A stretch of DNA of 64,000 nt from positions 47,246,001 to 47,310,000 of the forward strand of contig NC_086097.1 in assembly GCF_963921235.1 (NCBI RefSeq), read 5' to 3'. The DNA comes from Mobula hypostoma. Its lineage: Eukaryota. The position numbers were made by a program, and so were the translations under genes. This document shows, piece by piece, positions 1,020-64,000 of this stretch. The notes beneath the pieces were generated by a model, which saw nothing but the letters and a program-made list of their open reading frames with translations, made no database searches and was not told where the DNA came from. Within the stretch, counting starts at the first letter, position 1. Each line of letters starts with the position of its first letter.

Positions 1020-1023
1020 CTTA

Positions 1024-12441: not shown

Positions 12442-12648
12442 AACAAACAAAATGCTGGAATGCTGGGAGGAACTCTGCAGGGGAATAAAGAGTTGACGTT
12501 TCAGGCTGAGAGCGCTCATCAGGACTGGGCTGTGCCTGGAACGTTGACTCTTTATTCCTCTCCAAAGATGCTGCCTGACCAGCACTGTGTGAGTGTGTGT
12601 GTGTGTGTTACTCCAGATTTTCAGTATCTGTAGAATCTTTTGTATTTA
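12442..12648. mobile_element. Short decayed fold-back PLE remnant with hammerhead-like motif on the minus strand
   Basis: gaataaagagttgacgtttcagg is inverted against cctggaacgttgactctttattc. Minus strand reads cagtcCTGATGAgcgctctcagcctGAAAcgTC. Confidence 0.65.
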
Positions 12649-12914
12649 TAGTGTTCCGTAGAGATGCTTCAGACTTAAACTAGACTGGAATTTTTGCCAG
12701 CCATTCTTGAATAAGAGTAGAAAAACATAATAATTAACTACTGGACTAGAGTATGATGTGGTAAATTTAAGTCTTTAAGTTGAAAGGAAAATACTTGACT
12801 AGTAATGGTAATTGCAGCTGTAGGAATGTTGGAAAACACATCTGGTTTATATATATATTATTCAGGAAAGAAAATTTGCCTTCTATACTCAATCTGCCAA
12901 TGCGTGACTTCTAA

Positions 12915-14530
12915 TCTGCTTGTTTGTCGGCCCTGTGGGATCAAGGATGATTTGTTTTTACTCCCAATTCTGAAGGTGATTAATGAATTCTGACTCGGAT
13001 GCTCTCTGTCACAAATTGTTTGGATTAATACTCAGTTTGTATTTGCCCTCCATGTGCTACTGTCAGAGTGGCTTGAAGTACCTGGTGCCTTTAAGGATAC
13101 TTCTCAGTTGTTCTAAGAGTTTTTAAACCAAGGATTCTGGTATAATGATGAGAATGTTATGGAAGCTTTGACAATGTTTTTTTAAAGTGTTTCTTGTTCT
13201 TTTGGGACATTGCTTAGACTGATGGGACCGTCAGATAAAGTAATTGTTTCTGGAGTCAGGCATGGACTTGCTATAGCTTGCTTATTGGAATTCACTGAGT
13301 ATGATCGGAGCCTCTGTTGGATTTTCTATCCTGCTAATGGATTACATGGCGAGAGTATACAATGGGACCAGGAATGGCAATGTTTGGTTGTTGGTAGGTA
13401 GGGTTAATACCTGACTTTCAAGAGCTCTTGTGAGGTATGTTCTGGCTGGACTTTGTCCTTAAACTGCTGGAGAACAGTGCGGAAAGAACAGGTGTTGTTT
13501 TCTCCCGGTAGGGATTATTTTTTATTTCCAAGTGCTCCCAGTTTTGTCACCCTGCAACCTTACCCTTCAATCTCTTTGAATTATGGAGGACAGCATGTGT
13601 ATAAATGTCTCTCTCCAGCAGACTTCATTATCATCATGACTCCAGTATTTCTGCTATTTTTTAATGTTTCTTAATTGTACATATGATTTTTTTGTGTTCT
13701 ATTGCTGAGCAGCAGTGAACCATCCGACTGGCCTATCAGAGTTCTCTTTGGGAACTAGTTGACTTGACCCGCATTTCTGATCTCGCTATTGTTCACGATT
13801 GTACTTATTTAAAAAAAACAATAATGTGCACACTGTTGCTCAGTTATGGTTGATGCTGCTTTCTTTGTTCTTCTTGGATTTGTTTTGTGATGAAGATCAT
13901 CTCCATTATGCCTTTTACTGGGTGGAACCTGCATTCGTCTGCGGTGGAGCTCTTCAGTTTATGGAAGAAGGCAGCTGAGGAAGACTCTTGCAATGTTTTC
14001 TCTTTGGCAGACAATGCGAAGACTCCCATTTGCGTAATTACTACATCCAGATGTTTCCTTTCTGGAAAATGATCCTGACTCCGACATCCGAGAACACCCT
14101 GTGTAGTCTCCTAGTGTCAGATGAGAGGCATGAGGCATGAATTTGCAACATAAGTGCTTTTGACTGCATGTTAGTATTTTAGCAGTGTTTTGATCTGCTC
14201 CAGAGGCCTTGTTGGTTTTGACTTATGGGTGGCCTCTTGCTGGGTTGGGGATGTGACATGATTACAGTGGATAGCATACTGTGGCACAAAGTGAAGGACA
14301 AGTCAGTGACAAGGACCTTTTACTTCTATGAAGTGCTCCTTCAGCAGGCACTATTTGTCCTTGATTAGCTCTCTTTGGAAGCGTCGTAGTTGCTTGAGCC
14401 ACATGTTCTGGACAGTGTGAAGAATCCATATATCTCACTTAGCTTCTGCATCTCCTGCAGTGACTTCACCTACCACCTGTTGTGTAGCTTGAGGATATTT
14501 TGTACTTGGTCATGATGGTAGCTTCCAGTC
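12915..14530 (-). mobile_element. Old RTE-clade LINE remnant
   Basis: ORF 13844-14029 ECRFHPVKGIMEMIFITKQIQEEQRKQHQP resembles the RTE RT motif QCGFRPxRGTxDMIFxxRQxQEKCREQ. Boundaries are approximate. Confidence 0.55.
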
Positions 14531-15158
14531 TAGGAAATCATGACATTTGCAACTTACTAACACGTCTGTCATGATCATTCTTACCTATGCAGTTCTGCTT
14601 ACTGGGACAGAAACTGAGAGATTCTTTGCAAGTGCTAATTTGGAAAGGCTTTTGTTAGTTGTGACAGTACAGTGGCTGTTGGTCCAGCAGTCATTAACTC
14701 CTGCCATGGAGCTGGTGCTGTAAACATTCAGGCAGTCCTTCACAAGAGAACTGCACTCTTTTGAGCACTGTATCTCAAAGGATGTGTTTGTTTAGAGAAG
14801 AGTGCAGTGCTCGATGATTCACAAACTCCACTAGTTAAATTACAAACGATAAAGCTGTGCTTATTGAAATCTAAAATGTTAAGGATCAGAATCAGATTTA
14901 GCAGCACTAACATACGTTGTGAAATTTGTTTTGCCTCAGCACTACTGTGCAAGACATAAGCTCCTGTAGGTTACAAAAAAAAGACTGAAATTCCCAATAT
15001 TTTGAGGGGAGCTGATTAGATCTAGATTCAAGATTGTTTAATGTCAATTCCAGTACATAATTGTAAAGGAAATCAAAATAATTGTTAATCCAGATCTGAC
15101 GCAACACCAAAAAGAACACAATAATAATAAAATAAAACAGTAAATACTGAAGACTCCT

Positions 15159-15192
15159 GTCCTGATGAGGGGTCTCGGCCCGAAACGTCGAC
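15159..15192 (+). ncRNA. Minimal type I hammerhead ribozyme motif (intact core) at the start of a PLE fragment (15159-15293)
   Basis: gtc CTGATGA g gggt-ctcg-gccc GAAA cg TC gac: stem I gtc/gac, 4-bp stem II, palindromic ACGT stem III. Predicted cleavage after 15189. Confidence 0.8.
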
Positions 15193-16237
15193 TGTACTCT
15201 TTTCCATAGATGCTGCCTGGCCTGCTGAGTTCCTCCAGCGTTTTGTGTGTGTTGCTAGGATTCTAAGCATCTGCAGATTTTCTCTTGTTTGAGCTATTTT
15301 ATATACATTGTTTCTGTGCCTATAAAGTGACCTTGTATCTGTATATAAGGTGACTGATGGGAACCTAGTGATGGTTGGGGATGTAAAATAGAAAAACTAT
15401 TTCAATTACTTAGACCGTCTAGGATCAGAGCAAGAACCTGCCCAGGAAGTAAGGGGGTAAAGTGACTTCACTAAACAGTGGAACAAGCTTGAAGCCCACA
15501 CCTGTTTCTGAATACCTAAGTGTAATTTTAGAAGTGACCATGGCACATATTTAATTCATTTAGCATTATTGGTTCCTTCCTAGGCAGTTGCCTCTATTTC
15601 ATTTCCTCAGCCAAGTTTCAGCGGCAGCCATTGTGAAATGTTTCATCTTGTTTTTCACTATGACTCTGGTTTCTTAATGTAATGTGATTATGCAAGTTGC
15701 TTCCTCAGTAAGCTCTACATTGGAAGATGTTCAACAATCTTATTTCTCTTGATGTTTCAGAAGCATTTGCAGTCCTGGGGCTAGTCTCAATGTAACAAAC
15801 TGCTCTACACTGTAGATGCTTGTCAGTTCCTTATTCATTTACATGTGAGTTGGCTGATAATGAATTGGTGTCATTTTCTGTTCAATTGTAGTGACTTCTG
15901 TTACAGTATTGGGTTCTTTATATAGTAGGTTAGCTCTAGCATGCTAGTATTTGCCTTTTTGATCAAAATAAGTTGTGTTGCATCTAGTCAATTAAAATTT
16001 GAATGTGGTAATCCTCTAACAAAACATCTTGTGATCCTGGGTATGAGATTCCAATGTAAGTGTGATGCAACTTAATAAAACATCTCATGATTAAAGTTTC
16101 TCCAGGCAGGACAGCTTTTATTTCCCATCCCAAGTTGTTCTTGACAAGGTGGTGGTGTGCTGTCTTCCTCACTTGCTACTTTTGTGTGCTAAATTCCCAC
16201 AATGTTGGGTACGATGTTCCAGGACTTCAACCTGGTG

Positions 16238-19700: not shown

Positions 19701-19969
19701 AATAAAGTTGTTTAAGATTTTCTCCTTTATAATTCTGAGTACCAATAGCCTTGCTGTTAGTCACTTTGGAAAGTCTTGGAAAACAGTCATCTAATTTTTC
19801 AACCTAGTTCTTTCTGTATATTTTAAAATTGAGGGTTAAATGTTGATCAGAGCACTTGCAGAACCCCCAACCTATCTTATCATCTCCATTTCCCAGTCCA
19901 GTGACACAGCTTCCCTTTACCCCGCAAGTGAGAGGGAAAATGCAAAACAAATCAAAAATAATAGCAATA

Positions 19970-20096
19970 AAACATAAGAAAATATGCAAGTGCTGGAAGT
20001 CAAAGCAACACACACAAAATGCTGGAGGAATTTAGCAGGTCAGGCAGCATATAGTAAACAGTCAACGTTTCAGGCCAATACCCTTCATCAGGACTC
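19970..20096 (-). mobile_element. PLE terminal-repeat fragment with hammerhead motif (20060-20095)
   Basis: Minus strand agtcCTGATGAagggtattggcctGAAAcgTTgact, followed by the family tail gctgcctgacctgct...cctccagcattttgtgtgtgttgc. Confidence 0.75.
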
Positions 20097-20364
20097 AAAA
20101 ATCATCAGTTGCTCATTCCTTAAGCATGTATTTTATTCTCATATAATATAACACAATTACCTGCAAAGCTTGGAAAAAGTGAACTGTGTTGTATACACAA
20201 CCTGTTCTACAGGATCCATTCGGATGTTTTGATACAAGTTTGTGTTATGTTGGAGTAGTAAGAAACATTGAAAAGTTCAGTTATGTTTAACTTGTTTTTT
20301 TTAGAAAATGTTAACAAAATTATTCTTTACATTATTGTTCTTCTCTAGATTGTCAAAGTTCTAG

Positions 20365-20724
<360 letters not shown>

Positions 20725-25859: not shown

Positions 25860-26862
25860 CACTGGGCAATAAAGATTTAGCTTCCTGAATACTTTTGGGT
25901 GTATGTGATGGATTTTGGGCTGCTGAGCATGAAAATCACAATGAAATTTCCCTATCATGTATAATTTTTGAATTCTCCTATATTTATCATTTCGATTTAT
26001 AATTCAAGTCAATTAAAATGTTGGTCACAGTGTAAGCTGAAAAGTTCCCTATCTTGTCCAGGCATGCCTGGGCATGCTTAGGCAGGGCGGATTCTACATG
26101 GCAGGACAGGTTTTAGCAGTAATTATTGGGTTCAGGACTGTAAGGATGGAATTTGCTATCAAAAGGCACAAAAATTTCTGTGAAGGATTTTGATATTTGA
26201 GACAGATGCTTCCCAGAATAACTGATGCCAAGATTAAGGAAAGCATTTTTGTTGGTGCACAAATCAAACAGGTCATCAATGACAGGCAATTTGAAGAATT
26301 TCTAGTAGGACCAGAGAAAATCACATGGAAGGCATTCAAGGAAGTTGTTGAAATTTTTCTCGGCATCTACAGAGCACCAAACTACATGCAGCTGGTTGAT
26401 AGCATGCTTCAAGCATATAAAACCATGAAATGCAACAGGTCACTAAAGATTCATTTTCTGCATTCCCATTTAGACTTCTTCCCTGCAAATCTTGGTGCTG
26501 TTAGTGACGAGCATAGTGAAAAGTTTCACTGGGACATTGAGGTCATGGAGAAAAGATACCAGGGTAACTGGAATCCATCAATGCTGGCGAATTATTGTTG
26601 TACACTTAAGCGAGAAGCCTCAGACACTGAGTACAAATGAAAATCATTAACAAAATACTTTTAACAGTTGAACTATTGCAAAGCATCAGCACCATTATGC
26701 AATTAAACACATTATATTAAATAAAAGTTAATTTGTTGTTTCTCCAAATTCCTACGTGATACAGTAGTTTGAAATTATATTTGTGTTCATCTTCAAGCAG
26801 TCTATCATAAACAAAAAAAATTCTGAGGAAGCAACACTTTTGAAAAAATTTGTTGTCCAGTG
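25860..26862 (+). mobile_element. Internally deleted Chapaev(3)-like DNA transposon (1003 bp) retaining the transposase C-terminus
   Basis: Termini CACTGGGCAATAAA and TTTGTTGTCCAGTG form an imperfect TIR; flanks tta/ttg. ORF 26197-26640: DAKIKESIFVGAQI..AFKEVVEIFLG..SLKIHFLHSHLDFFPANLGAVSDEHSEKFHWDIEVMEKRYQG..MLANYC. Confidence 0.8.
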
Positions 26863-33920: not shown

Positions 33921-34239
33921 TTAATACAGTTGAACAAATTTCTAAGTACTTTTCTCACATAATATTGTTTGCAAGGTGGTGCATAATGGATCTCATTTGC
34001 TATCAAGCAGTTAGTGCCTCACAGTTCCAGAGTCCCATGTTCAGTCCTGTCATGGGTGCTGTCTTGTGTGAAGTTGGTGCATTCTTCCTGTGATCAAATA
34101 GTTTTCTGCCAGATGTTAGAAGTAATTTAGCCCTTCAGTATGTTAAGTTCCAAAATAATCAAAAAGGAACTGATAGGCAAGCCAGATAATTTGTAGGGAA
34201 GGAGGAAGGAAGCCAATGAGATTGTTCTGTTGGGAATCA

Positions 34240-34375
34240 TAAACACAAGAGATTCTGCTGATACTGGAAATCCAGAACAACACACACAAAATGCTGGAGG
34301 AACTCAGTAGGTCAGGCACCATCAGTGGAAATAAATAGTTAATGTTTTGGGTCTAGACCCTTCTTCAGACTGGGA
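34240..34375 (-). mobile_element. PLE terminal-repeat fragment with decayed hammerhead
   Basis: Same tail as the other copies; core degenerate (CTGAAGA...cAAAAcaTT). Confidence 0.65.
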
Positions 34376-35489
34376 AAGAAGGGGGATTCTGGTGACTTCC
34401 CCCTCGCACTGAATATTTTGGATGTTTAAGTTGCATTCCCAAGCAGGTGTCTCTTTCCAAGACACTCTGTATAGGGGGAAAAGCCACCTGCATGATGCTT
34501 TCTGCCTGGGGTATCCTGGAGATCCCCCCTCCCCCCCGCCCAGGTGCTCCTAGAATTGGGTTGTCGGCTAAAGTACATGAGTGCAGTCTATCAATGCAGG
34601 CACTTCGGGGAAGTTTGCAATGAAGCCAACTGCCCACTTCTGTTCTGCATTCTCCTGGGCTGAAGGAAAAACTGATGAGGTATCTCCTTCATTGTAGGTT
34701 TTGTGATGACTTGAGACTTTTAGTGACATACTGAATGCTCCTTCTCACAGGCCAGGAATTCCCAAGAATGAAAGGGAACATTGCCTTTTTGCTTGAAGGA
34801 GGCTTTGAGAACATCCTGAAATTGTTTCCTCTGTCATCTTGATTGAACTTGGAGTAAAATGTCTTGTTTCATAAGTCTGGATTTGTGCAATTTGGCCTTT
34901 GCTAACTGAGGCTAATTGGGAGAGGATTCATACCTGATTTCGTACCAGTGAATTTGGAGCATTTTTTTGGATGGTAACTTATTTCAAATGCCTTGATATA
35001 CCTGTGATTGTTGAAGACTCTGAGCCCTATAAAGGGGCAGGAATATCAGCTTTTTGCTCGATGGTTTGTGCCAAGTTTGAGTTCTTCATCTTCAGAGTTT
35101 TCTGCTCAGTAGAAGTTAGTACAATGGCAGTGTGCTCCTCCGCTTCTATTCTGGCCTCCTACCTTCAGCTATTGGCTGTCAACAACATGTCTGTGCATTG
35201 GGCAGGGTATATGTGGTAGGAATTTCACTGGGGACAGGGCAAGGTCTGCAGATGTGCAAGAGAATAGGAACTTGATCTTCCGAATAACAGTGAATACATG
35301 TTTGTGTTGTGCAGAAAATTACAGCATTGGTCTGAAATGATCCTGAGCAGAAAGTGTTAGTGACCCAAATTTCGTGGGCAAAGCAGTTAACATGATTGAA
35401 GTCACTGGATGTCACAGTTTTCCTGCAGAACAAAGAATGCAGCGTGAATACTGATCCTAAGTAGCACCAGTTAAAGGGAAATTCAGCAA

Positions 35490-39990: not shown

Positions 39991-42108
39991 AGACTGACGA
40001 GTAGGAGTTTGTTCAACAAGGTCAGTGGGACGTTTTGAATGCAAATATATAGAGTTGTGATTTCCTGATGTATTTGTAGTATGGTTTTCAGGGATACAAG
40101 TAGAATCTGTTGCAGCATTAACACGTTAGGAATGATTGTAGTTTCTTAGAATTAGTTTATTTTCACTACGTATAAAAAAATACTATGAAATACCTGTTGA
40201 CCAATTTCCAGTGGCTAGTTGAATTGTGGGCTTCTTCTGTTACTGAAAACTGAAGTATTTTCTGGTTTAATTAAATCTAAGAGCTACATTTTTTTAAAAA
40301 TGGAGGGAGGCATCCATTTTTAAATAGCATCAGAAAACAAAAGTACAAGAAGCTGTTTTGTCCTCCTGTCCCAAACTATATCACTAACCCAGTGAAGCAA
40401 TCTGTTGGCAAGTCAGTGTGTTGTGCCAGCCCAGTAAGATGCTTTTTAATCCGTGATATCCAAGCTCACTCTTTGCGGGGAAATCTATCACCAATATCAT
40501 TGCCCTGCTTTCTGTACGTAACACTAATGTTACCTCCGCAATTAACAATTAATCCACTTTTCCTTGAAACCACAGAATGTTAGATCTTGCTGTTAAGTAT
40601 TTGTCACAGTTGCCTTTCGGATTTCATCCTGATCAGCATAATAAAGGGAAAGGAAAGATATTTTCTCACAGCAATAAAACACACTGGAAGAGATTGGGAT
40701 CATGGCTCAGTGAGGAACTGACTTGAATCTGGTGCGTGTTTTCTTGTAAACCAGTGAGCAGTTCTGTTATTAGTGCATCTCTTTAATGTTATTGGATTGC
40801 ATGTAACATTAAAATCTGACCGTACTATTAACAAACAAGATTTAATTAGGAAAATATTTAAAAGCATTTTAATAGTTTTATCAAGTTATTTTAAATTAAA
40901 AATGCAGTGCTCTCAGTTAAACATAACTTGATTATGCTTCTTGGTATTAGGTCTTGTTCTGAATAAGTACAGAAATGGGGAGGAAAAAAGGACCAAGTTG
41001 AATTCTTTATTTCATTTGCAGAGTCTAAGGCTTGAATAGCAAACCTATTGAATCTCCACCTGCAAATTTTAACAGAATCAGTTTGCAGATATTGATTTTG
41101 TTTCATGATTATCAGGATTAGATTAGAAAAAGACTTGTGATTAAGGTTGACTGATTATGCAAACATATGCGGGCAGACATGATGTCAAGCATTTTTTTTT
41201 GGCATTATCATGTGATTCCGCTGGAGATGTGTTCAAATGGTGCTTGCAGATGGTGCTTTCAGAAGCAGCTGACTTATAAAGTCAACAAGCAGCCTCTTTT
41301 GGAGTAGGATGAGTTTTCACAATGTTTGAAAAATATTTTAAGGATTAATGTATTTCTGAAGTTGTTTAGTTTGATTCTTAAATTTTGAATTTGGTGAACA
41401 ACTACATGATGTGCTCTGACTGGTCAGCGTTCGTTTGCCAGGTCCTGACTCAGTCCTGTTATGTCAGTACCAGGATGGAAATAAAATGTTTTCTTCAAAT
41501 TAGATCGTACACAATTGTGCAAGGAATAAATTTGGACTGACGTTGTAAGCAATTATTTTTATTCAAGAATTTGCGGATATTCATTTTACTGAAATGCCTC
41601 TCTTCCCCCCACCTCGCCCCTCCAGTTCAACACGTGGATGAACAACACAGGCTACCGCTGTCTACACCCACTTCTTGCCCTGCACCTACCATCCACACCT
41701 CCACATACCAACTGCTTTTGTCCCAATCTTCACCTCCCCCAGCCCCACCTTCCACCAACTCCCCAGTCATCATGCTGTCACCTTCACTACTGTGTGGGTG
41801 AGAAGGGCTCTGGGGAAACTCAGGCACGGCAAAGCATTGGGACCGGATGGTGTGATCCCTGAGGTCCTGAAGGAGTGTGCTGAGCAGCTGTGTGGATTTC
41901 TCCAGTGCATGTTCGATCTGAGTCTCAGCCTGGAAAGGGTCCTGACCGTGTGGAAAACATCTTGTGTGCTCCCAGTACCCAAGAAAGGCTAACCAAAGGT
42001 CTTGAATGATTACCAAAACACAAAATAATCTGCAGATGCTGGGGTCAAAGCAACACTCACAACACGCTGGAGGAACTCAGTAGGTCGGGCAGCATCCGTG
42101 GAAACAAT

Positions 42109-42146
42109 CAGTCGACGTTTCGGGCCGGAACCCTTCGTCAGGACTG
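42109..42146 (-). ncRNA. Minimal hammerhead ribozyme motif (intact core)
   Basis: cagtc CTGACGA a gggt-tccg-gccc GAAA cg TC gactg, with 5-bp stem I. Confidence 0.8.
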
Positions 42147-42503
42147 TAGGGGGAAGGGGCAGAGGCTCTATAAAGAAGGTGGGGGGAGAGTGGGAAGGAG
42201 AAGGCTGGTAGGTTCCAGGTGAAAAACCAGTAAGGGGAAAGATAAAGCCCTCCCTTCCTCTATCCATATGTCACTCTGCCCCCTCCCCCAGCTGCCTATC
42301 ACCTCCCTCATGGTTCCACCTCCTTCTACTACCCATTGTGTTTTCCCCTATTCCTTCTTCACCTTTCCTGCCTATCACCTCCCTGTTTCCCCTCCCCCAC
42401 CCCTTTATCTTTCCCCTTACTGGTTTTTCACCTGGAACCTACCAGCCTTCTCCTTTCCACCCTCCCCCCACCTTCTTTATAGGGCCTCTGCCCCTTCCCT
42501 CTT

Positions 42504-42541
42504 CAGTCCTGACGAAGGGTTCCGGCCTGAAACGTCGACTG
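42504..42541 (+). ncRNA. Minimal hammerhead ribozyme motif (intact core, G-U pair at base of stem II)
   Basis: cagtc CTGACGA a gggt-tccg-gcct GAAA cg TC gactg. Confidence 0.78.
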
Positions 42542-43945
42542 ATCGTTTCCACGGATGCTGCCCAACCTGCTGAGTTCCTCCAGCATGTTGTGAGTGTTGC
42601 CTTGAATGATTACCGTCCAGTAGCCCTAACCTCACACATCATGGAGACCCTAGAGAGGCTGGTCCTGGCTCACCTCCTGCCCCCAGTCAAATCAGCCCTC
42701 GATCCCCTGCAGTTTGCCTACCAAGAGTACATTGGACTCGATGATGCTGTCATCTACCTGCTGAACAGAGCCTACTCCCATTTGGATAAGCGGGGCAGCA
42801 CTGTGAGGATCATGGTTTTTGATTTCTCGACTGCCTTCAATACCATAGAGCCCTCATTGCTAGGGAAAACCTTGATTCAATGCAGTTGGCACTTCTATTA
42901 TTACCTGGATAATGGACCAACAGAATGGCAGACCACAGTTTATGCAGCTTCAGAGCTGTGTGTCAGACATGGCTATAAGCAGCATTGGGGCCCCACAGGG
43001 GACTGTATTGGCTTCCTTCCTGTTTACCCTGTATAACTCGGACTTTAGATACAATTCTGAGTCAAGTCATCTGCAGAGATTCTCTGATGAATCAGCAATA
43101 GTTGGATGTTTAAAGGGAGGATGGGTGGATGAATACAGGGCCCTGGTGGAGGATTTTGTCAAATAGTGCAGGGTGAATCATCTGCAGCTCAACATAAGTA
43201 AGACCTGATGGTAATGGACTTTGGGAAGACCAAGCCTGCATTGTTCCCTGTTACCATTGATGGTGAGGATGTGGATGTGGTGAGGTCCTACAAGTACGTG
43301 GGGTGCACCTGGATGACAGACTTAAGTGGAACACCAAGATAGAGGCTGTGTACAAGAAGGGCTAGAGTTGCCTCTACTTCCTGAGAGACTGGGGTCCTTT
43401 GGAGTATGCAGGCTTCAGGTGTTCTACCAGTCTGGTGTCACCAGTACTGAACAGAGCCTACTCCCATTTGGATAAGTGGGGCAGCAGTGTGAGGATCACT
43501 GTGAGGACCTTGCGGTGGTGAACTGGGGCAATGGCATCAACATGGGTGATGCCAACAGGCTCAACAAACTGTTTAGAAAGGCTAGCTCTGTTGTAGGAGT
43601 CAAACTGGACACACTGGAGGCTGTGTTAGAACAAAGGACCGTCAGAAAAATCCTGGCAATTCTGGACAATGTTTCTCATCCTCTGAATACCACCTTGGCT
43701 GAACAGAGGAGCACTTTTAGTATAGACTATGACAACTGTGCTGCTCCAAAGAGCACTATATGAGGTCATTCTTACCCTTGGCTATTAGGTTCCTTAATGA
43801 GTCAACCTATAGCCTGGAAAGTGATGACCCCTCCTATGAGACTGTTTGAGGTAAATTGTTTTCCATTCTTTCTTCTCTTCTAATATTTGTACACCCATGC
43901 ACTTGTAATGCTACTGTGGCACTAATTTCCTTTGTGATCAATTAA

Positions 43946-44754: not shown

Positions 44755-45209
44755 GATATTTTGAGGTCCAAATTTTTGATGGTTTATAAATTATTGAAAT
44801 TTAATTTCAAAGTATGCAAGTAAATTTGTTGCACTGTTCTTAACATCAAAAATACTTTCATGGTTCCTGTGGTAAATTCTCAATTTGCTTCAGAATGGAT
44901 TATTTTTCTCAGTGGCAGTCTTGAACTTCATTCATACAGAGATTTGCATTTAAATGGAAGGTTGTTGAATTGCCATTGTATTCTTGTCATTAGGGAGAAC
45001 AAGAATCTTGATGTCTGCTGGACAAAATGTGAGAACAAATCAGATTTACAGAAGTTGTAACACAGTGAGAAAATGTGGGTTCTATACCTGCTCTTGCTAC
45101 TACTTCACAATTAATAGTCCACAACAGGCAGAGAAAAGCCACCATTTCCCCGTTTCAGCTTGCATTAAGTATTTCTTTAGTTTTACATTTGGACTGGGCC
45201 ATTGTGTTT

Positions 45210-46229: not shown

Positions 46230-47105
46230 AACCCATTCCCATTCCGACATGTTGGTCCATGGTCTCCTGTACTGCCGTGATGAGGCTACTGGCAGGTTGG
46301 AGGAGCAACTCCTCATATTCAACTCCTCATATTCAACCTGGCAACATGAACATCAATTTCAAACTTCCAGAAAATTTTCCCCCTCCTGATTTCCTTTTCT
46401 TCCATTCCCACTGTAGCCTCCCTCTTAAACTCTTCTCTTGTCCTCAACTACTTATTATCTCCCTCTGGTGCCCTTCCTCCTTTCCCTTCTCCCATGATCT
46501 ACTCTCCTCTCCGATCAAGTTCCTCCTTCCTCAGCTGTTTATTTTTTGCAGCTGTCATCTCCCAGCTTCTCACTTTATTCCCCCTCATCATGCTTTACCC
46601 AGCACCTTCTAGCTCGCACTCCTTCCTCTTCCCCAACTATCTTATTCTGGCATCTTCCCTCTTCCTTTCCAATCCCAATAAAGGGTCTCTGCTGAAAACA
46701 TCCATTGTTTGTTGCTTTCCAAGATTGCTACCTGACCTGCTGAGTTCCTCCAAAAAAAGAAGTCCTCTAGCTTAAGTCAGAATGACTCTGGTTGGGCCAG
46801 TTTTTGACTGGGCTTAAATGAATGTATTTTAATAACACTTCAGAAACTCAACATTATCCACCATCCTCCTTCAGCCCTTAACCTTTCCCACCCACTTGGC
46901 TTCACCTATCACCGTCTAGCTAGTCTCCTTCACCTACTCCCACTGTTTTATTGTGGCTTCTTCCTCTTCTGGGTCCTGAAGAAGAGTCTCAGCCCGAAAC
47001 ATTGACTTTTTTTCATTTCCGCAGATGCTGCCTGACCTGCTGAGTTCCTCCAGCATTTTGTAGGTTTTGGTTTGGATTTACTGCAGCTGCAGACTTTGTT
47101 GTGTT
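46230..47105 (+). mobile_element. Two decayed PLE 3' fragments: GIY-YIG C-terminal remnant, 3' UTR and hammerhead-like motifs (about 46670-46705 decayed; 46973-47006)
   Basis: HSHSDMLVHGLLYCRDEATGRLEEQLLIF..QPGNMNINF and gtcCTGAAGAagagtctcagcccGAAAcaTTgac. Confidence 0.7.
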
Positions 47106-47248
47106 AATTATTTACCATCTATTCAAAATCTTGATTGGCATCCAGCCCCCAATCTAGTTTTTTTTCCTTCTTTCTCCCTTCCATCCGCAATCACCCATAG
47201 CTCCCACTACCCATCACCAGTGTATCTATTCTCTTCCTAATCAGAACG

Positions 47249-47760
47249 GTATCATTTCGGATCTCCCCCTCCCCCTCCCACTTTCAAATCTCTTACTAGC
47301 TCTTCTTTCAGTTAGTCCTGACGAAGAGTCTCGGCCCGAAACGTTGACTGTACCTCTTCCTAGAGATGAACTTTGATGTGTGTTGCTTGAATTTCCAGCA
47401 TCTGCAGAATTCCTCGTGTTTGCATTTTTAAATTCACTACTGCGAAGCCTCTTCCAGTGATGCCTACACTGAAGAAGTTTAAATCTTCTCTTCGGGAGTT
47501 CAGTGAAACCATCTCTCACTGCTCCCCATCTGTAATTTCTTCGACTCTCCAACTTTTCTACCACATTTTGACTCAGACTCGCTATCACAGCTTCTCCTAT
47601 CATTTCGGATCTCCCCCTCCCCCTCCCACTTTCAAATCTCTTACTAGCTCTTCTTTCAGTTAGTCCTGACGAAGGGTCTCGGCCCGAAAGGTCGACTGTA
47701 CCTCTTCCTAGAGATGCTGCCTGGCCTGCTGCGTTCACCAGCAACTTTGATGTGTGTTGT
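47249..47760 (+). mobile_element. Internally deleted PLE: terminal repeat, ORF start, terminal repeat, with tandem hammerheads (47314-47349 and 47662-47697)
   Basis: Direct repeat tatcatttcggatctcccc... at about 47249 and 47598. The spacer encodes MPTLKKFKSSLREFSETISHCSPSV, homologous to 63010-63140. Confidence 0.8.
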
Positions 47761-49053
47761 TTGTATTTAGGATCTGAAATCCTTGTTTTGACTCTTCCAT
47801 CTCCCTTATGCTTCAATTATTGGTTCACAAATCTCTTAAATAGCATCCTTTGCTAGGGTGAAACTGAGCTTGTCTAAATGTGTTAAGCTTGGAGTATTCA
47901 GAAGAAAAGATTAGCTTAACCTTCTAGAAGCTTGCTTTGAATTTAATTTGATCATACAAATGCTGCAAGTCTGGCATTCATTGCCCCTTTCCTGGTTGCC
48001 AGAATAGGTGGTGATAAAACATCTAAGACATTTCAGCAGAGATTGAACCACAAAATCAAAAGCAAGTTATTGGGACTGGTGGGATTTTTCTGTTTGCTGT
48101 ATGTGAGATCACAAACAAAGTCAAAGTTTATTGCCCCATCCTTATGGTCCTTGAAGGGTTACTGTTTCTATGTCATACAGACTGTCAGAATGCAGTTCAG
48201 TAGGGAGATTTAATATTTAAATGCAGCAATGTTGAGTAGGGGCTGTATTTCAAATCAGAAATAGTGTTGAGGGGGAACTTACAGGAGTTCTCGTACAGTC
48301 ATTTTCCCCTTTTTCCAGAAATGGATCATGGGTTTGGGAGGTGCTGTAAAGGAAATCTTGCCAATTTTTTTTGGTGCTACATTTTGTCTAAGTACTGCTG
48401 ATGGCAAGAAGGAAGAGCTAGAGTGGAGGATTGGGTGACAACCAAACAATGTTTTACTCTCTGATACCGTTTCTTCAATTTGACAAATATTATTCTGGCA
48501 AGTGGAGATTATTCTGTTACATTCATTTGTGTCTTGTCAATGACAGCATAACAGGGAGTTGAGAGCTGCATTGTATCCAGATTCAGTTTCTGAACCTTTG
48601 TAAACATGGTATTTAAATGACTGCCCAGGTGCGCTTGAAGAGGATATAGTTTCTAGGATCCTTCTAATGGCAATGCCTTTTCACATCAAGGAAGCTGTTA
48701 AGGGGGTGGTCCATTGTTGTGCTCTTGTTTGGTGCAAATGTACTTTATATTGCTCAGCCTTTGCCTGAGTCATATCTAGGTTTTAGAATACTCTGGCGTA
48801 AGCTATCATCTGGGAAGTTTCCTGCACAATCGAATTGTAAACGTAACTTTGCTGGATCAAATAGCGGCAGCACAAAAAGATCGTTACTTATCTTTTCACC
48901 CGTTTATTTCTTCGAGCTCAGCCGGTGAGTGAACTTGGACCCGACATCAGGGAGAGAACCTTTCTCATCTCCCCGGCAGTTCTACAAGTTCACTGCCTGA
49001 TATCAGAAGTTATAAGGCCACCGATACAAAAGAACAATCAGTTTGATAACCAT

Positions 49054-49940
49054 ACAGGAGGAATTTTGCAGATGCTGGAAATTCAAGCAGCACACATCGA
49101 AGTTGCTGGTGAACGCAGCAGGTCAGGCAGCATCTCTAGGAAGAGGTACAGTCGATGTTTCGGGCCGAGTCCCTTTGTCAGGACTAACTGAAAGAAGAGC
49201 TAGTAAGAGATTTGAAAGTGGGAGGGGGAGATCCAAAATGATAGGAGAAGACAGGAGGGGGAGGGATGGAGCCAAGAGCTGGACAGGTGATTGGCAAAAG
49301 GGATATGAGAGGATCATGGGACAGGAGGCCCAGGGAGAAAGAAAAGGGGGAGGGGGGAAAACCCAGAGGATGGGTAAGGGGTATAGTGAGAGGGACAGAG
49401 GGAGAAAAGGGAGAGAGAGAAAAAGAATGTGTGTATATAGATAAATAATGGATGGGGTATGAGGGGGAGGTGGGGCATTAGCAGAAATTGGAGGTCAATG
49501 TTCATGCCATGAGGTTGGAGGCTACCCAGACAGAATATAAGGTGGTGTTACTCCAACCTGCGTGTGGCTTCATCTTTACAGTAGAGGAGGCCGTGGATAG
49601 ACATATCAGAATGGGAATGGGACGTGGACTTGAAATGTGTGGCCACTGGGAGATCCTGGCATGAACATTGACTTCTCTAACTTCTGCTAATGCCCCACCT
49701 TCCCCTCGTACCCCATCCGTTATTTATTTATATACATACATTCTTTTTCTCTCTCTCTCACATCCCTTTTGCCAATCAACTGTCCAGCTCTTGGCTCCAT
49801 CCCTCCCCCTCCCACTTTCAAATCTCTTACTAGCTCTTCTTTCAGTTAGTCCTGACGAAGGGTCTCGGCCCGAAACGTCGACTGTATCTCTTCCTAGAGA
49901 TGTTGTCTGGCCTGCTGCGTTCACCAGCAACTTTGTGTGT
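49054..49940. mobile_element. Fold-back PLE insertion (887 bp) with 14-bp TSD, GIY-YIG C-terminal remnant and two hammerhead motifs
   Basis: agtttgataaccat at 49040-49053 and 49941-49954. The minus arm translates DLPVATHFKSTSHSHSDMSIHGLLYCKDEATRRLE*HHLIFCLGSLQPHGMNID. Minus hammerhead 49150-49185 is mutated (CTGACAA). Confidence 0.88.
49848..49883 (+). ncRNA. Minimal hammerhead ribozyme motif (intact core)
   Basis: agtc CTGACGA a gggt-ctcg-gccc GAAA cg TC gact. Confidence 0.8.
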
Positions 49941-50962
49941 AGTTTGATAACCATTCCAGCCAAGTCAATAGACTATTGATACAAAAGTACAATCAATTTG
50001 TTAAACACTCCAGCCACCTTAATTAAAGAAAAGAATGTCCTACTTTGTTTGTTGGAGCCACAACTTAATGACAAAGATAAGAACATCCGTCAAATTTATG
50101 CTTGAAATAAAAAGGAATGTTCTGTCTAATTTCCATCAGGTACTGCTTTTTGTCAAAATCAAAAGGTGTGAAAAGCCCAGAGACATCTTATGTGGATCTG
50201 AGCAAATTTTAACCCTTATCTTGCTCCAAAGAAAGTAGCTGTGAGACATTATTCAAACACACTGCAGTCACAGACTTAATTCATTGTTTACAGGGATCTG
50301 AGAATCCCCCATTCCCTTAAACTTTATCAGAATAATGCACAATTAGCGGTAAGCAATGCATTTCTGACCTCTTAATGGAAGGAAGGTCACGTAGGCAGCT
50401 AAAAGTGGTTGGAGTTACTTACCTGAGAATCTCTTGAAGGAAAGATCTGGGGCTGCCATGTTCAACCAATACCAACCACTGCCACCTTGATTGCTCCAGA
50501 AATGACTGCAGTGAAAACAGAACCAAGGGGGAAATTGTTCATTGGTTTCAGTTTTGCCAAGCCTATACTTGTTCCTTTTTGTCAAGGATGTTCCTATTCA
50601 TCTTGCCCATGCATTCAGTTTGTTTACTTGAAGTAAGGCTGACTTTGAGCATTTCTGGCAAAGTATAAACTGATCATTAGAACAGAAGTTAATGTTAGAT
50701 GACTGCTGCATGTAGATTTTCATGGAGAAATATTTGTAATGTATTTTTCACATTGTTTTGTATCCCAGTGTACACTTTATCGTGTTGTAGACAAAGCCAA
50801 ATCCTTGTCACTCTTGCTGAAATCACCAAGATAACCCTGCCCTAAATAAACTGTACCCATTGGCTAAATGGTGGTTCCTCCATATCTCATGTTTTCTGCA
50901 GTAAGTTTTATTGTTCAACATTGAAAAGTATCTTCATCATGTAAAATATACTTTGGTTGTGA

Positions 50963-51310
<348 letters not shown>

Positions 51311-54932: not shown

Positions 54933-55610
54933 ATAGTATCCAAAAAATGGAATCTAAAGCTGAGGAGAAAGATTGTTTTGAAATCAGAGCAAGTGATAAC
55001 TCTCTGTTTAGGACTGAAGAAACGGAAGTTACAAATTGTTGTTTAGAGTTGAAAAATACTTGTATAAAGTTGCTAGCTGTGATTTATGAAATTGTATAAA
55101 TAGATTCCTACTCAGCTCTTAATTCCTTAAATATTAACAAAGGCATAAAAATAAACAAGAGAATGTGGAATAAATCTTGCATTTCAGCCAAGTGACTGGA
55201 ATGTGATATTTGCTTTAATAGAGCATTTCACTCTTGCATGTCTTCTTTCATAATGGAGCTGGTATTGATACAAATCATTATACCAATTTATATGTTTCCT
55301 GGATATCCAATCCCTTACTTCCTCTCCCTTTGTAAACATCCTTAAATACCTTGGATCTCAGATGCCCAAACTTTCCCTTTAATTTAAACAGTCCTTGTAA
55401 ATTTAAGACATCCTCATCATTTCTCTATATTCATGAGAAATTTACTCCCCTGAATCCTATTTGCAACTGCTCACCCTAGGTCCTTCCATGAGTATATGAA
55501 GATAAATCTTGTTTGTATGCACAAGGTGAGAAATGAATGATTGCTTTTGTCATCCATGCTTTGTTTAACTGTAGAAGGTTAAAAAGTTTTAAAAATCTGC
55601 TGAAGATGTA

Positions 55611-56092
55611 GCAGCGCACATAAAATGCTGAAGGAACTCAGTAGGTCAGGCAGCATCGATGGAGGGGAATAAACAGTCAACGTTTTGGCCTTCATCAGGG
55701 CTGGAAAAGAAGGGGCAGATGTCAGAGTAAGAAGGTGGGGGAGGGGAAAGAGTACTAGCGGGCAGGTGATAAGTGAAGACAGGTGGGTGATGGGGAGAGG
55801 GAGGCTGAAGGAAGGAACTGGGAGGGGATAGATGGAAGATTAAATGGCTGAGGAAGAAAGAATCTGATAGGAGAGGCCAGTGGACCATGGGAGAAAGGGA
55901 AGGAGGAGGGGCCCCAGAGGAATATGATAGGCGGGTTAGGGGCAGAGAAGAGGGGAGAAGGAAACTGGAATGGGGAAAAAAGAGGAGGGAGAAATTGATG
56001 TTCATGACATTAAGTTAGAGGCTACCCAAATGGAATATAAGGTGTTACTCCTGCAACCTTGGAGTTGCCTCATTGTGGCAGTAGAGGAAGGC
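55611..56092 (-). mobile_element. PLE 3' fragment (GIY-YIG C-terminal remnant, 3' UTR, hammerhead with stem II deletion)
   Basis: Minus strand LYCHNEATPRLQE*HLIFHLGSL..MNINF; core CTGATGAaggccAAAAcgTTgact. Confidence 0.75.
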
Positions 56093-56979: not shown

Positions 56980-57066
56980 CAGAGGTTCCCAACCTGGGGC
57001 TCATGGACCCCTTGCTTAATAGTTTTGGTCCATGGCGTTTTTTAAAAAAAAAGGTTGGGAACCTCG
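56980..57066. mobile_element. Short hAT-like MITE
   Basis: TIRs cagaggttcccaacct and aggttgggaacctc-g. No clear TSD. Confidence 0.6.
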
Positions 57067-59622: not shown

Positions 59623-60092
59623 ATCATATTGCTATATGCTGAAATCTTTCCTGAATTCTTTCAGTCCTGATGCAGGGCCTTGACCCCAATTTGCCCCTTT
59701 AGCCTCTGCATGCACTAATTGACCTGAGTTCTTCCAGCTTTGTGCTCCAGAAGCCAGGTAGCTGTCCAATCTGCTGAAAAGTGTTCATTTCCAAAGGACT
59801 GAGTTGTATTTGCATCTGGTTCATACCATATCAGCTTGCCGCTTTCATGTAGTGTTAAAAGAAAGCTGCCTGGGGGATAGTGATAGAGTGGGAGAGGGAT
59901 TATTGGTGTGGGGTGAGCACACCGCCCTGCCTTGTACACCGAGTCAGTATGAGTCAATGCTTTGAAAGGGTGGGAGATGGGAACTTTGAAGATTAAATGC
60001 CAAGTTTGGTGTGTATATGTGATGACTTTAAAAGAAATAATGGGGAAAGTAATTTTATTTGCAAAGAGCAAAAGGAACGTACTGAATTTTAA

Positions 60093-60443
<351 letters not shown>

Positions 60444-60755
60444 GGGACAAAGAAATGTTATTTATCAATATATTTGTTTCTCGCTAAGGAAGGTACAGTG
60501 TAGAATGAAATTCTACAGAGATGTGTTGACGTGTGATGTCCTGTGGATGCATGCCTTGATTATGGCATCTGATTAACATTTTACTTTTACAGAAACTAAC
60601 TGTGAAAGAAATAGCATACAACTTGATGCAAATTCAGTACTTGGGCTGTAAATGGAATGAGCAGTGGGATCTAAACCATTTATAAATTCCATGTGGGCAT
60701 AGTGTATTGACCTTCTTTCAGCAATGCCTTGTTCGTTTAGTTTAATTGACTTTCT

Positions 60756-60761
60756 AATAAA
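60756..60761 (+). promoter_or_regulatory. Candidate TRMT61A polyadenylation signal
   Basis: AATAAA about 310 nt after the stop codon, followed by T/GT-rich sequence. Confidence 0.5.
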
Positions 60762-61835: not shown

Positions 61836-62392
61836 TACAGTGCAGTTTTGGTCCCCTAATCTGAGGAAAGACATCCTTGCCATAGAGGGAGTACAAAGAA
61901 GGTTCACCAGATTGATTCCTGGGATGGCAGGACTTTCATAAGATCAAAGACTGGATGAACTAGGTTTATACTAGTTGGAATTTAGAAGATTGGGGGGGGG
62001 GAATCTGATTGAAATGTATAAAATTCTAAAGGGATTGGACAGGCTAGATGCAGGAAGATTGTTCCCGATGTTGGGGAAGTCCAGAACGAGGGGTCACAGT
62101 TTGAGGATAAAGGGGAAGCCTTTTAGGACCGAGATTAGGAAAAACTTCTTCACACAGAGAGTGGTGAATCTGTGGAATTCTCTGCCACAGGAAACAGTTG
62201 AGGCCAGTTCATTGGCTATATTTAAGAGGGAGTTAGATATGGCCCTTGTGGCTAAAGGGATCAGGGGGTATGGAGGGAAGGCTGGTGCAGGGTTCTGAGT
62301 TGGATGATCAGCCATGATCATACTGAATGGCGGTGCAGGCTCGAAGGGCCAAATGGCCTACTCCTGCACCTATTTTCTATGTTTCTATGTTT
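61836..62392 (+). mobile_element. Young CR1 3' fragment within an older minus-strand CR1 (about 61700-62780)
   Basis: ORF 61975-62298 (NLIEMYKILKGLDRLDAG..TRGHSLRI..FFTQRVVNLWNSLP) and (ttctatgt)n tail. Confidence 0.85.
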
Positions 62393-62974
62393 ACATGTCG
62401 TTTAAATGCTCTAATTGTACTCGTCTCTACCATTTCCTGTGGCGGCTTGTTCCACGTGCCCACCATCCTCTGTGTGAGAGGTGGACCTTGCCTCTAAGAT
62501 TCTCTAAATCTTTCCCTGCTCAACTTAAACCTATGCCCACAAGTTTTAGCCTTCTCTGACCTGGTTAAAAAGACCAACCATTCACCTTACCTATGCCTCT
62601 CAAAATTACCCCTCAGCCTTCTACACTCTATAGAAAAATGCCACAGCTTATTAAGACTCTCCTTATAGTTCAGACCAGTAACACCCTCATGAATCTTTTC
62701 TACACCCTTTCAAGCATAAGGACACCTTTCCTCTAACCAAGAACTGCACACATTACAACAATACCTTGTACAACTGGTATTTAAAAGCCAAACTGCTGAA
62801 GGCAAAGTCAGTGTAAATTTATTATCAAATATGGCTATGTCACCATATAATACCTTGAGATACATTTTCTTGCAGGCATTTATAGGAAAATAAGGAAATT
62901 CAATTGTTTATGGAAAAACTATACGAACAAAGGCTAACAAATAAATAATGTGCAACCTGATGGTGTGCGACCTA

Positions 62975-63550
62975 AGGTTTCACTGCTCCACTGCAAAGTC
63001 TCCATGAGGGATACCAACCCTGAAGAAGTTTAAATCTTCCCTTCGTCAGGAGTTCAGTGAAACCCTCTCTCACTGCTCCTCCACTGTAATCTCTGCTGCT
63101 CTCTGACTTTTCGACCATCTGTTCACCCAGACCTGTTACCGCAGCAACGTATCCTTCCTGGGAGCCAGTCTTCTCCACCATCTTGCGATGAATATTGATT
63201 TTTTTTTCCTCTGTTGAACAAAATGTCCCCCCTCTGCCTCCTCTATTCCTCACTCTGACCTTTAACTACTTCTCACCTGCTTATCACCTCCCCATGGCTC
63301 TCCTCCTCTCCTTTCTCCTGTTGTCCACTCTTCTCTGCTAGCAGATTCTTTTTTCCCCAGCCCTTGACCTTCCCCAGCCCTTGACCTTTCCCACCCACCT
63401 GGCTTCACCTATTACCTTCCAGATAGCCTTTCTCCTCTCCCCACCTTTTAATTCAGGGATCTTTTTCACCCCCCCCCCGCCCCCAGTCCCAATGAAGGGC
63501 CTCGGCCCGAAAATTTGACTGATTACTCCTTTCCGTAGATGCTGCCTGAC
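62975..63550 (+). mobile_element. Internally deleted PLE (ORF start fused to ORF end and 3' UTR, decayed hammerhead at about 63484-63521)
   Basis: ctgaagaagtttaaatcttcccttcg..gagttcagtgaaacc as in 47460-47590, joined to atgaatattgattt (MNIDF). Confidence 0.7.
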
Positions 63551-63825
63551 AGTCAGACAGAGGGACAATAGCCTTGCTACTCTCAATTTTGTCTGCCAAA
63601 TAATGAGTTTGAAGGAATGTCGGTCCATCAGACAAGAGAGTCGTAGCTAGTCACAGGGAGGAGATTTCCTTGTCCATTTTCTCTTTTTCTGCAGTAGGAT
63701 ATGATATGTCTATAATGTTAGTTAAGTGGCTTGGTTCATGTGCTGTTGCTTCAGTAACCATTGGAACCTCTCTACCAATTTACAGGCAACTTCCCTAATA
63801 TGTGTACTGAGTATTTTACATGGTC

Positions 63826-64000
63826 ACACACATAAAAGTTGCTGGTGAATGCAGCAGGCCAGGCAGCATCTCTAGGAAGAGGTGCAGTCGACGTTTCAGG
63901 CCGAGATCCTTCGTCAGGACTAACTGAAGGAAGAGTGAGTAAGGGATTTGAAAGTTGGAGGGGGAGGGGGAGATCCAAAATGATAGGAGAAGACAGGAGG
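63826..64000 (-). mobile_element. PLE terminal repeat with hammerhead motif (63886-63921), runs off the window
   Basis: Minus strand agtcCTGACGAaggatctcggcctGAAAcgTCgact. Same subfamily as 47598-47760 and 49054-49260. Confidence 0.8.

Follow-up and report, generated by a model that had tools for sequence, protein, structure and literature searches.

The scatter of short hammerhead-like motifs along this stretch of Mobula hypostoma DNA (64 kb, analysed whole and referred to here as the window) raises the question of which element carries them and whether the individual copies are still ribozymes. A preliminary description had proposed a dense family of minimal hammerheads belonging to Penelope-like elements (PLEs). 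Such hammerheads, dispersed in vertebrate genomes, were described in 2014 (Cervera & De la Peña, PMC4209133), and dimer cleavage (Lunse et al.) is cited in a review (PMC6765202). In the literature searched, no paper dealt specifically with this PLE/hammerhead family in cartilaginous fish; these fish are not named in the passages of PMC4209133 consulted, whose supplementary species lists may name some, and retrozymes have been counted in one chondrichthyan (bioRxiv 10.64898/2026.07.22.740005).

Results

Seventeen hammerhead-bearing copies of a PLE end, one of them weak, were found in 13 insertion units of the window, which bears out the earlier count of at least 12. Sixteen were recovered by nhmmer at E<1e-8, the seventeenth (59658) having an E value of 0.1 and its tail portion 0.81, and a search for the full motif with at most three substitutions gave 11 matches in the window and none in any of 30 dinucleotide shuffles. 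A covariance model derived from 14 copies returned one additional copy (55674-55703), otherwise nothing new, and did not recover the weak copy at 59658. All 15 positions listed previously are among the 17, together with two absent from that list, 12530+ and 46672+. The density, given earlier as about one motif per 5 kb, is 17 copies in 64 kb, but potentially functional motifs number just three to five. In an Rfam scan, none of the hammerhead families matched at E up to 1 and the seven unrelated matches were weak, a null result that we took as uninformative because the motif is 36 nt long and without helix III.

On its sequence, the motif is confirmed as a minimal, dimer-type hammerhead ribozyme motif of PLE ends, of a known kind. 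Twelve copies were scored systematically against the motif criteria and the other five were judged from alignments. The motif has the full set of 13 conserved core positions, both stems, an additional base following A9, G10.1-C11.1 and the palindrome; the core bases CUGANGA ... GAAA ... UH, in type I order, occur in 10 of the 12 scored copies, and the palindromic ACGU, which has no loop III, retains CG at 15.2/16.2 in eight of them. This agrees with the preliminary assignment to minimal type I hammerheads with a palindromic stem III, as these are described in the text of PMC4209133; the stem II loops ctcg, tccg and attg were also as claimed, and motif scoring confirmed the predicted cut position after 15189. 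Stem II has 4 bp, versus 7-8 in the schistosome families of PMC4209133. Stems I and II are paired in register in 89.6 % of 125 cells, versus 14-43 % when slid. Pairing of stem II is largely kept, as had been stated, through identity and G.U wobble, but none of its four pairs has changed on both sides; in stem I three of five pairs show compensatory change, in one cell each (14 copies). The covariation score from these 14 copies was 0.204, not clearly above shuffled data, 33 of 500 shuffles reaching that value (17-245 of 500, depending on the measure), and folding z-scores of the unit were unremarkable (+0.41, +1.45, -1.16, -1.27). Modelling of the motif indicated that helix III within a monomer is sterically disallowed, the monomer being predicted to fold as an inactive hairpin that sequesters core bases; nearest-neighbour energies were -16.7 kcal/mol for the active dimer versus -25.8 for two inactive hairpins and -34.1 for an alternative duplex.

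The copies share an architecture running from a GIY-YIG C-terminus through a pyrimidine-rich spacer and the hammerhead to a tail with a long or a short end. They are listed here with the host exons (strand in brackets).

12432..12529 (-): left arm of an inverted pair; pLTR copy with the short end, beginning at the stem I edge; hammerhead 12490-12527, in which stems I and II are both damaged
12526..12647 (+): its inverted partner, long tail with a GT run; begins within stem II; no target duplication found
15157..15294 (+): micro-copy, hammerhead satisfying all criteria, long tail; predicted cut after 15189; 5' end at the stem I edge
19965..20098 (-): micro-copy, long tail; hammerhead close to intact, with G.U at 10.1-11.1, a GUU site and an AUUG loop; 5' end at the stem I edge
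20365..20710 (+): host coding exon, tRNA m1A58 methyltransferase catalytic subunit (Pfam GCD14)
34238..34385 (-): decayed copy, long tail, ~15 nt of spacer; one base missing ahead of the core, stem III changed at CpGs
42001..42614 (unstranded): inverted pair with exact 14-bp target duplication, 42001-42014 / 42601-42614
42015-42247 (-): arm of that pair, long tail; hammerhead satisfies all criteria; predicted cut after 42114
42248-42600 (+): arm of that pair, short end; near-intact hammerhead
46231..46753 (+): GIY-YIG C-terminal remnant (46231-46360) and spacer, leading to a dead hammerhead at 46670-46707
46864..47110 (+): copy, long tail, stem III palindrome broken
47250..47767 (+): partial tandem, two pLTRs around a probable ORF start; second pLTR with short end
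47313-47350 (+): hammerhead of the first pLTR, stem II mismatch, followed by tail
47460-47591 (+): probable ORF start inside the partial tandem (N-terminus HMM)
47661-47698 (+): hammerhead of the second pLTR, palindrome broken
49040..49954 (unstranded): inverted pair with exact 14-bp target duplication, 49040-49053 / 49941-49954
49054-49658 (-): arm of that pair, long tail, carrying the GIY-YIG remnant 49491-49658; its hammerhead is dead (G8A, broken palindrome)
~49659-49940 (+): arm of that pair, short end; hammerhead satisfies all criteria; predicted cut after 49879
50994..51260 (+): host coding exon (Pfam GCD14)
55594..56092 (-): GIY-YIG remnant (55988-56092) and spacer ahead of a hammerhead that has lost 8 nt in stem II; short end
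59658..59743 (+): weak copy in advanced decay, retaining just the motif's 5' half; E 0.1, tail E 0.81
60118..60443 (+): host last coding exon (Pfam GCD14)
62990..63550 (+): copy with an internal deletion that joins the probable N-terminus of the ORF (63026-63163) to the final ORF codons; spacer, dead hammerhead 63484-63521
63826..64000 (-): copy, core bases intact, stem II damaged, short end; continues past the window edge

The GCD14 exons belong to a host gene that we take to be TRMT61A; the copies are spread both within this gene and beside it. The inverted pair at 42001..42614 was inserted into an older LINE RT remnant.

Most copies are better described as mutated relics than as ribozymes, decaying mainly at CpGs. 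All structural criteria are satisfied in 3 of the 17 motifs (15159+, 42144-, 49849+) and nearly so in two. Six cores had been described as intact; these three are, but 42504(+) and 20060(-), with G.U at 10.1-11.1, are near-intact, and 63886(-) combines whole core bases with a stem II damaged by a G.U closing pair and an A x C mismatch. Substitutions in the 12 scored copies run at 0.22 for CpG sites versus 0.06 for other sites, 21 of the 26 CpG changes being of deamination type. For the two youngest subfamilies, constrained hammerhead positions are identical in 30 of 30 cases versus 49 of 99 in the flanks, and diverged subfamilies agree in all catalytic bases and in the 15.2/16.2 palindrome, N7 and loop II alone being variable. 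Since the motif is kept between subfamilies while the flanks have diverged, selection appears to have acted on source elements and not on the copies.

Protein homology and a PLE-specific insertion anatomy support the PLE origin that had been proposed. GIY-YIG C-terminal remnants lie at 49491-49658(-), 46231-46360(+) and 55988-56092(-); the earlier report of three linked copies is correct in number, but the PVATHF part is limited to 49491-49658(-), and the remnant at 46.2 kb belongs to the previously unlisted 46672+. The remnant at 49491-49649(-) shares 87 % identity with one Mobula hypostoma ORF across its full 53 aa, and 74-75 % with four Hypanus sabinus ORFs (five matches from seven candidates). 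Four of these five ray ORFs combine a region resembling the RT YxDD motif with a match to GIY-YIG (E 5e-4 to 2e-3, below the Pfam cut-off), so that through them RT and C-terminal GIY-YIG are found in a single ORF on the same strand as the pLTR. A CX2-5CxxC linker occurs in all four and in each of the 15 long relatives that were checked; it was read in these ORFs, the window itself containing ORF ends only. Because the longest remnant matches a ray ORF with RT, zinc linker and GIY-YIG, a Neptune-type element is indicated: the data point to a Neptune-type, endonuclease-positive PLE, Nematis having the same linker and Penelope and Poseidon lacking it in the text of PMC8557442. Pfam assigned no family to any of the three window remnants because they are too short. 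A search for a full-length ORF from the host found none, the nearest full-length relatives being at most 52 % identical, and none of the 46 long matches is named from a ray. When an HMM of the N-termini of 35 relatives was run against the six-frame window, 63026-63163 ranked first (E 0.004) and 47463-47591 second (E 0.49); a word search with the probable ORF-start peptide gave one candidate and none scored, and HMMs of 13 and 10 sequences gave no significant match to the probable ORF start. An ORF start downstream of the motif is thereby supported at modest significance.

Three inverted pairs are present, two of them (42 kb, 49 kb) with exact 14-bp target duplications; the other 9 of the 11 units examined have no clear duplication. 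At the 49-kb site, a paralogous repeat shows the insertion-free state. Two 3' end points, ~35-40 nt apart, fall at ~+92-95 and ~+130-133 from the motif start: seven of the 17 copies have the long end, six the short one, one runs on and three end earlier or unclearly, and in 3/3 inverted pairs one arm is long and the other short, a pattern known from PLEs (PMC8557442, PMC11167929). Truncation at the 5' side is seen. Five of the 17 5' ends lie within ~20 nt upstream of stem I, three of these within ~3 nt, and the remainder vary from ~-60 to -475, reaching into the ORF. None of the 17 copies begins at the cleavage site, and no tail-only copy starting there was present among 17 matches at E<1. The one partial tandem (47250-47767) runs into the ORF start and is the sole direct pair, split by ORF-start sequence; tandem arrays of hammerhead monomers without ORF sequence are absent. 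Micro-copies are 65-85 % alike across motif and tail, and the window has no clear microsatellite targeting.

In DNA run X1, 139,374 contigs aligned to one 666-bp copy; the element was absent from two raw-read runs, X21 giving 16 low-complexity reads and X22 none. By extrapolation, we infer a genome copy number of ~10^5 or more. A contig-depth drop in X17, a contig run that we guessed to be RNA, was considered as evidence of cleavage (~3-fold across the cut versus ~2-fold in X1) and rejected, because contigs cannot show ends and the copy has four mismatches there.

Discussion

We consider it very probable that the insertions are 5'-truncated, partly inverted or internally deleted copies, in the genome of a batoid ray, of an EN+ Neptune-type PLE, now carried as inert passengers. 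The copies show the order of parts in a source element, made of head-to-tail units: the ORF end, a ~300-nt pyrimidine-rich spacer, the hammerhead, two adjacent end points ~95 and 130-135 nt from the start of the motif and, with modest significance, the next ORF start at ~+170. The element's GIY-YIG would nick the target, and RT would initiate internally at one of the two tail sites and copy back through the hammerhead, usually halting early. Every insertion, however short, would carry the motif because RT begins in the tail and passes the hammerhead first, as copy anatomy and the anole work outlined in PMC11167929 suggest. The hammerhead core would form only when two copies share the ACGU helix in tandem source transcripts, probably aided by the element's protein, and the dispersed copies, decaying via CpG deamination, are most likely inert.

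The ~135-nt micro-copies from the stem I edge may be complete 'strong-stop' cDNAs, a suggestion that we make tentatively and hold to be rather doubtful. Either the source RNA would start just upstream of the hammerhead or a hairpin closed by stem I would stop RT, so that RT initiating in the tail would come to its end at the edge of stem I. If so, 10^5 or more copies would form a base-resolution record of vertebrate PLE transcript start and RT initiation, the template would be an uncleaved hammerhead and not a cleavage product, and the purpose of PLE hammerheads would become testable from genome data alone.

A real, if minority, possibility is that the motif is kept as a protein-binding or RT-positioning hairpin or as a promoter element, cleavage being incidental or absent. 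The inactive monomer fold and the lack of copies starting at the cut are consistent with this, as are findings given in PMC11167929 for the anole, where hammerhead mutants inserted normally in vitro and no RNA-seq ends fell at the cut; however, the anole motif does cleave with protein help (PMC11167929), and variation confined to N7 and loop II is what selection for the catalytic fold predicts. It is improbable that the short copies form a separate retrozyme- or SINE-like non-autonomous family that amplifies through a short or circular RNA of its own and borrows the PLE enzyme in trans. The 5' ends clustered near stem I, the two internally deleted units (47250-47767, 62990-63550) and the proposal that animal retrozymes are non-autonomous PLE derivatives (bioRxiv 10.64898/2026.07.22.740005) would suit such a family, but there is no array of identical monomers, the other 5' ends reach into the ORF, and the absence of copies beginning at the cut is contrary to a cleaved-monomer template; the micro-copies are, moreover, too dissimilar and therefore not one young family.

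Intact sense copies might also pair within one pre-mRNA, cut it and alter host gene output, given six sense copies in the 30-kb intron 20711-50993, among them the perfect 49849+ and near-perfect 42506+ and 47315+ motifs, 2.5-7.3 kb apart. We think this very improbable: minimal PLE hammerheads cleave poorly even as dimers according to the text of PMC4209133, dimer energetics are unfavourable, the nearest pair (47315+/47663+) has a broken palindrome, and CpG core bases are decaying in both orientations. The chance that a LINE or SINE tail merely resembles a hammerhead is negligible; the Rfam result and weak stem covariation speak for it, but the complete set of core, stem and palindrome features and the direct linkage to the end of a GIY-YIG ORF speak against it.

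Compared with known systems, the family that we attribute to a Neptune-type PLE is ordinary in kind, its abundance being the sole unusual aspect; the dense family proposed earlier is supported as to abundance, but it consists mostly of relics and its situation was already described. With the minimal hammerheads of metazoan PLE pLTRs (fish Xena, Poseidon and Neptune) it shares, in the account of PMC4209133, type I order, no loop III, palindromic 15.2-16.2, a stem I of 4-5 bp, the extra base between 9 and 10.1, G10.1-C11.1 and mostly single dispersed copies with some opposite-strand pairs 100-700 bp apart. Neptune-clade EN+ PLEs, as outlined by Craig et al. (2021, PMC8557442), similarly have a C-terminal GIY-YIG with CxxC and His ligands, the CX2-5CxxC linker (seen here in host-relative ORFs), 5' truncation, partial tandems, an inverted 5' copy and a 30-40 bp tail at one end; a difference is that the window shows no clear microsatellite targeting. 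The Poseidon element PAc of Anolis (Frangieh et al., 2024, PMC11167929) also has a pLTR hammerhead and two adjacent end points bounding a downstream tail. However, its ORF begins at stem II with RT starting inside the ORF, whereas in these copies the probable start codon comes ~140 nt after the cut, which places motif and both end points upstream of the ORF, and Poseidon is without the zinc linker that the ray-related ORFs have. Non-LTR animal retrozymes share the type I hammerhead and PLE pLTR origin but form tandem arrays of hammerhead monomers (bioRxiv 10.64898/2026.07.22.740005), whereas the copies here are dispersed, variable in length and in several cases joined to ORF remnants.

The ray copy number, being extrapolated, is probably at least 10-fold above the 'remarkable' ~4,000 of coelacanth and ~9,000 of Xenopus (PMC4209133). 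Nothing in kind goes beyond the 2014 description, and the value lies in the data set: if the window, with 17 copies and 3 fully intact in 64 kb, is representative, a ray genome would contain dated copies in the hundreds of thousands, each with its ends recorded. Such copies could reveal which hammerhead bases are kept by source elements, where RT starts and stops, and whether introns purge intact sense-strand copies.

Hammerhead copies and their state

Eleven matches to GTC-CTGANGA-N-stem II-GAAA-CG-TH-GAC at three or fewer substitutions were found in the window and none in any of 30 dinucleotide shuffles of it; the bare core pattern gave 17 matches, where the shuffles averaged 2.9. A profile built from the motif and its tail identified 16 copies at E<1e-8 and a weak one at 59658, and the hammerhead copies total 17, grouped in 13 insertion units, in the 64 kb. 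An Rfam scan of the window gave no hammerhead match. The preliminary description had proposed a dispersed hammerhead family carried by Penelope-like elements (PLEs), and motif anatomy, GIY-YIG linkage and insertion anatomy bear this out; all 15 of its positions were recovered, with 12530+ and 46672+ additional (copies are named by motif position and strand). The family is a further member of an already described kind.

The layout is that of a type I ribozyme, with a 5-bp stem I, CUGANGA, one extra purine and a 4-bp stem II with a 4-nt loop, followed by GAA, ACGU, H and the 3' strand of stem I. ACGU is self-complementary and shareable between two copies and, because it has no loop, helix III cannot close within one molecule. 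The motif fits the features listed for minimal hammerheads by Cervera and De la Pena (PMC4209133). Twelve copies were scored base by base and the remaining five judged from alignments. Six had been claimed to have intact cores: three of these (15159+, 42144- and 49849+, the only such copies among the 12 scored) are intact in every feature assessed, whereas 42506+ and 20094- have a G.U at 10.1-11.1 (their sole deviation, except that 20094- also has a GUU site) and 63920-, like 47315+, has a stem II mismatch. The motif is broken in 12525-, 46672+, 46973+, 47663+ and 49184-, and 12530+, 34371-, 55702-, 59662+ and 63486+ are truncated or mutated.

Identity of the carrier element

Three copies had been linked to a GIY-YIG C-terminal remnant. 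The remnants located, all on the hammerhead strand, are:

46231-46360, plus strand, GIY-YIG C-terminal remnant
49491-49649, minus strand, GIY-YIG C-terminal remnant
55988-56092, minus strand, GIY-YIG C-terminal remnant

Five ray ORFs match the remnant at 49491-49649, translated with X at its single stop, at 74-87% over its whole length. One is a chimeric prediction; the other four contain an RT YxDD-like motif region, a CX2-5CxxC linker and a GIY-YIG domain with CxxC, with Pfam scores below cut-off. Their full-length relatives (800-950 aa, at most 52% identical) have RVT_1 and the same linker. As Neptune and Nematis have this linker and Penelope and Poseidon lack it (PMC8557442), the element is, judged by these ray ORFs, likely Neptune-type.

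Insertion anatomy

Three inverted pairs have outward-facing motifs. Those at 42.0-42.6 kb and 49.0-49.9 kb are flanked by exact 14-bp target duplications, and the latter lies within a repeat that has an insertion-free paralog at 11.0-11.7 kb; in nine of 11 units examined no duplication was clear. The repeat, of about 700 bp, has two copies about 90% identical, 10982-11705 (-), in which a unit of about 53 bp is triplicated, and 48836-50329 (+), split at the same motif by the PLE pair. Where duplications fix them, 3' ends fall at about +92-95 or +130-133 from the motif start; the 17 copies comprise seven long ends, six short, one running on and three other, and each of the three inverted pairs has one long and one short end. 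These classes correspond to the optional 30-40 bp PLE tail described in PMC8557442; in an anole element the two tail ends were shown to arise from RT starting at either of two internal sites (PMC11167929).

Beyond the tail, copy 47315+ enters a frame at 47460-47591, whose DNA is 78% identical to 62990-63145. With an HMM from the N-termini of 35 relatives, 62990-63145 ranked first (E 0.004) and 47460-47591 second (E 0.49) in the whole window; smaller HMMs and a word search gave these ORF-start stretches no support. The run-on and the ranking point to a unit of ORF end, spacer, hammerhead, tail and ORF start, i.e. the PLE terminal repeat (pLTR). At 62990-63550 (+) a probable ORF N-terminus reads in frame straight into the final ORF codons. 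The large internal deletion that this implies may be a single event or may mark a non-autonomous family.

The 5' ends, read by eye in a small sample, lie between about -475 and the interior of stem II; in five of the 17 copies the start is no more than about 20 nt upstream of stem I, and in three of these no more than about 3 nt. None of the 17 starts at the cut site, and the window yielded no tail-only copy. That micro-copies (insertions of about 135 nt, hammerhead plus tail, starting at the 5' edge of stem I) mark where the transcript begins and derive from an uncleaved template seems to us rather doubtful.

Behind the copy structure, ends, duplications and decay observed here, a mechanism may be proposed in which the PLE endonuclease nicks the target and RT starts internally at the tail; early termination combined with this start would leave each insertion with a copy of the motif. 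Cleavage is predicted to need two copies and probably help from protein. Nearest-neighbour energies, which omit core tertiary contacts, make the active dimer (-16.7 kcal/mol) less favourable than two inactive hairpins (-25.8), in agreement with low in vitro rates of minimal hammerheads (PMC4209133), protein-assisted cleavage in the anole element (PMC11167929) and activity of one in nine Xenopus dimers (bioRxiv 10.64898/2026.07.22.740005).

Decay and selection

Stem pairing, described earlier as largely kept, is indeed kept in 89.6% of 125 cells against 14-43% in slid controls, but in none of the 4 stem II pairs had both members changed, and 33 of 500 shuffles reached the covariation score. Substitutions per site were 0.22 at CpG and 0.06 elsewhere, 21 of 26 CpG changes being of deamination type; such changes convert G-C pairs to G.U and thereby mimic kept pairing. 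In contigs of X1, a DNA sequencing run, rough estimates place G8 in about 70% and G16.2 in 72% of depth, the reference copy being mutant at both, and C11.1 is T in 39%. Between subfamily majority sequences, constrained positions agreed at 30/30, 29/31 and 28/30 and flanks at 49/99, 55/96 and 64/90 (Fisher P 4e-8, 1e-4 and 0.012), a comparison of few copies with some gap artefacts in the flanks. This pattern would reflect purifying selection acting on the source elements, with the copies decaying neutrally.

Abundance

At 82% identity or more, 139,374 X1 contigs align to one 666-bp copy, which is not a copy number; they span its spacer, motif, tail and ORF end. If the window is representative, each Gb would hold about 2.7 x 10^5 relics, and intact motifs would number about 5 x 10^4; batoid genomes are put at 2.2-4.0 Gb, and high published hammerhead counts are about 4,000 and 9,000 (PMC4209133). 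PLEs are reported from all vertebrate lineages studied, elephant shark included (PMC4350176), and an internal promoter is reported for Drosophila Penelope (PMC2377424). The PLE-hammerhead literature searched contained no paper devoted to cartilaginous fish.

Genomic setting

The window is vertebrate DNA with abundant LINE remnants and one RVT_1 match, and by its named homologs the host falls among batoid rays. Three host coding exons have Pfam GCD14 matches and readable splice sites:

20365-20710, plus strand, host coding exon
50994-51260, plus strand, host coding exon
60118-60443, plus strand, host coding exon

By this domain evidence the gene at 20365-60443 (+) encodes the putative tRNA m1A58 methyltransferase catalytic subunit (GCD14), presumably TRMT61A. 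Its two coding-region introns (30 kb and 9 kb) are crowded with repeats and contain 11 of the 17 hammerhead copies, seven sense and four antisense. The first 12.4 kb (1-12400) hold no hammerhead or pLTR copy and are occupied by larger LINE and LTR-like remnants. Among these, a long broken LINE, which we take to be CR1-like, lies at 3700-8500 (-), with RT (RVT_1 at 4732-5772) and ORF pieces upstream. A 159-aa frame at 509-988 (-) and a 148-aa frame at 26194-26640 (+), neither with a Pfam match, resemble the N-terminus of an LTR-retrotransposon gag and a DNA-transposon protein remnant, respectively. Broken frames at about 34400-34700 (-), directly upstream of copy 34371-, resemble a Harbinger-type DDE nuclease. 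At 43909-44823, a purine/pyrimidine-skewed low-complexity tandem repeat of about 900 bp produces spurious long ORFs on both strands.
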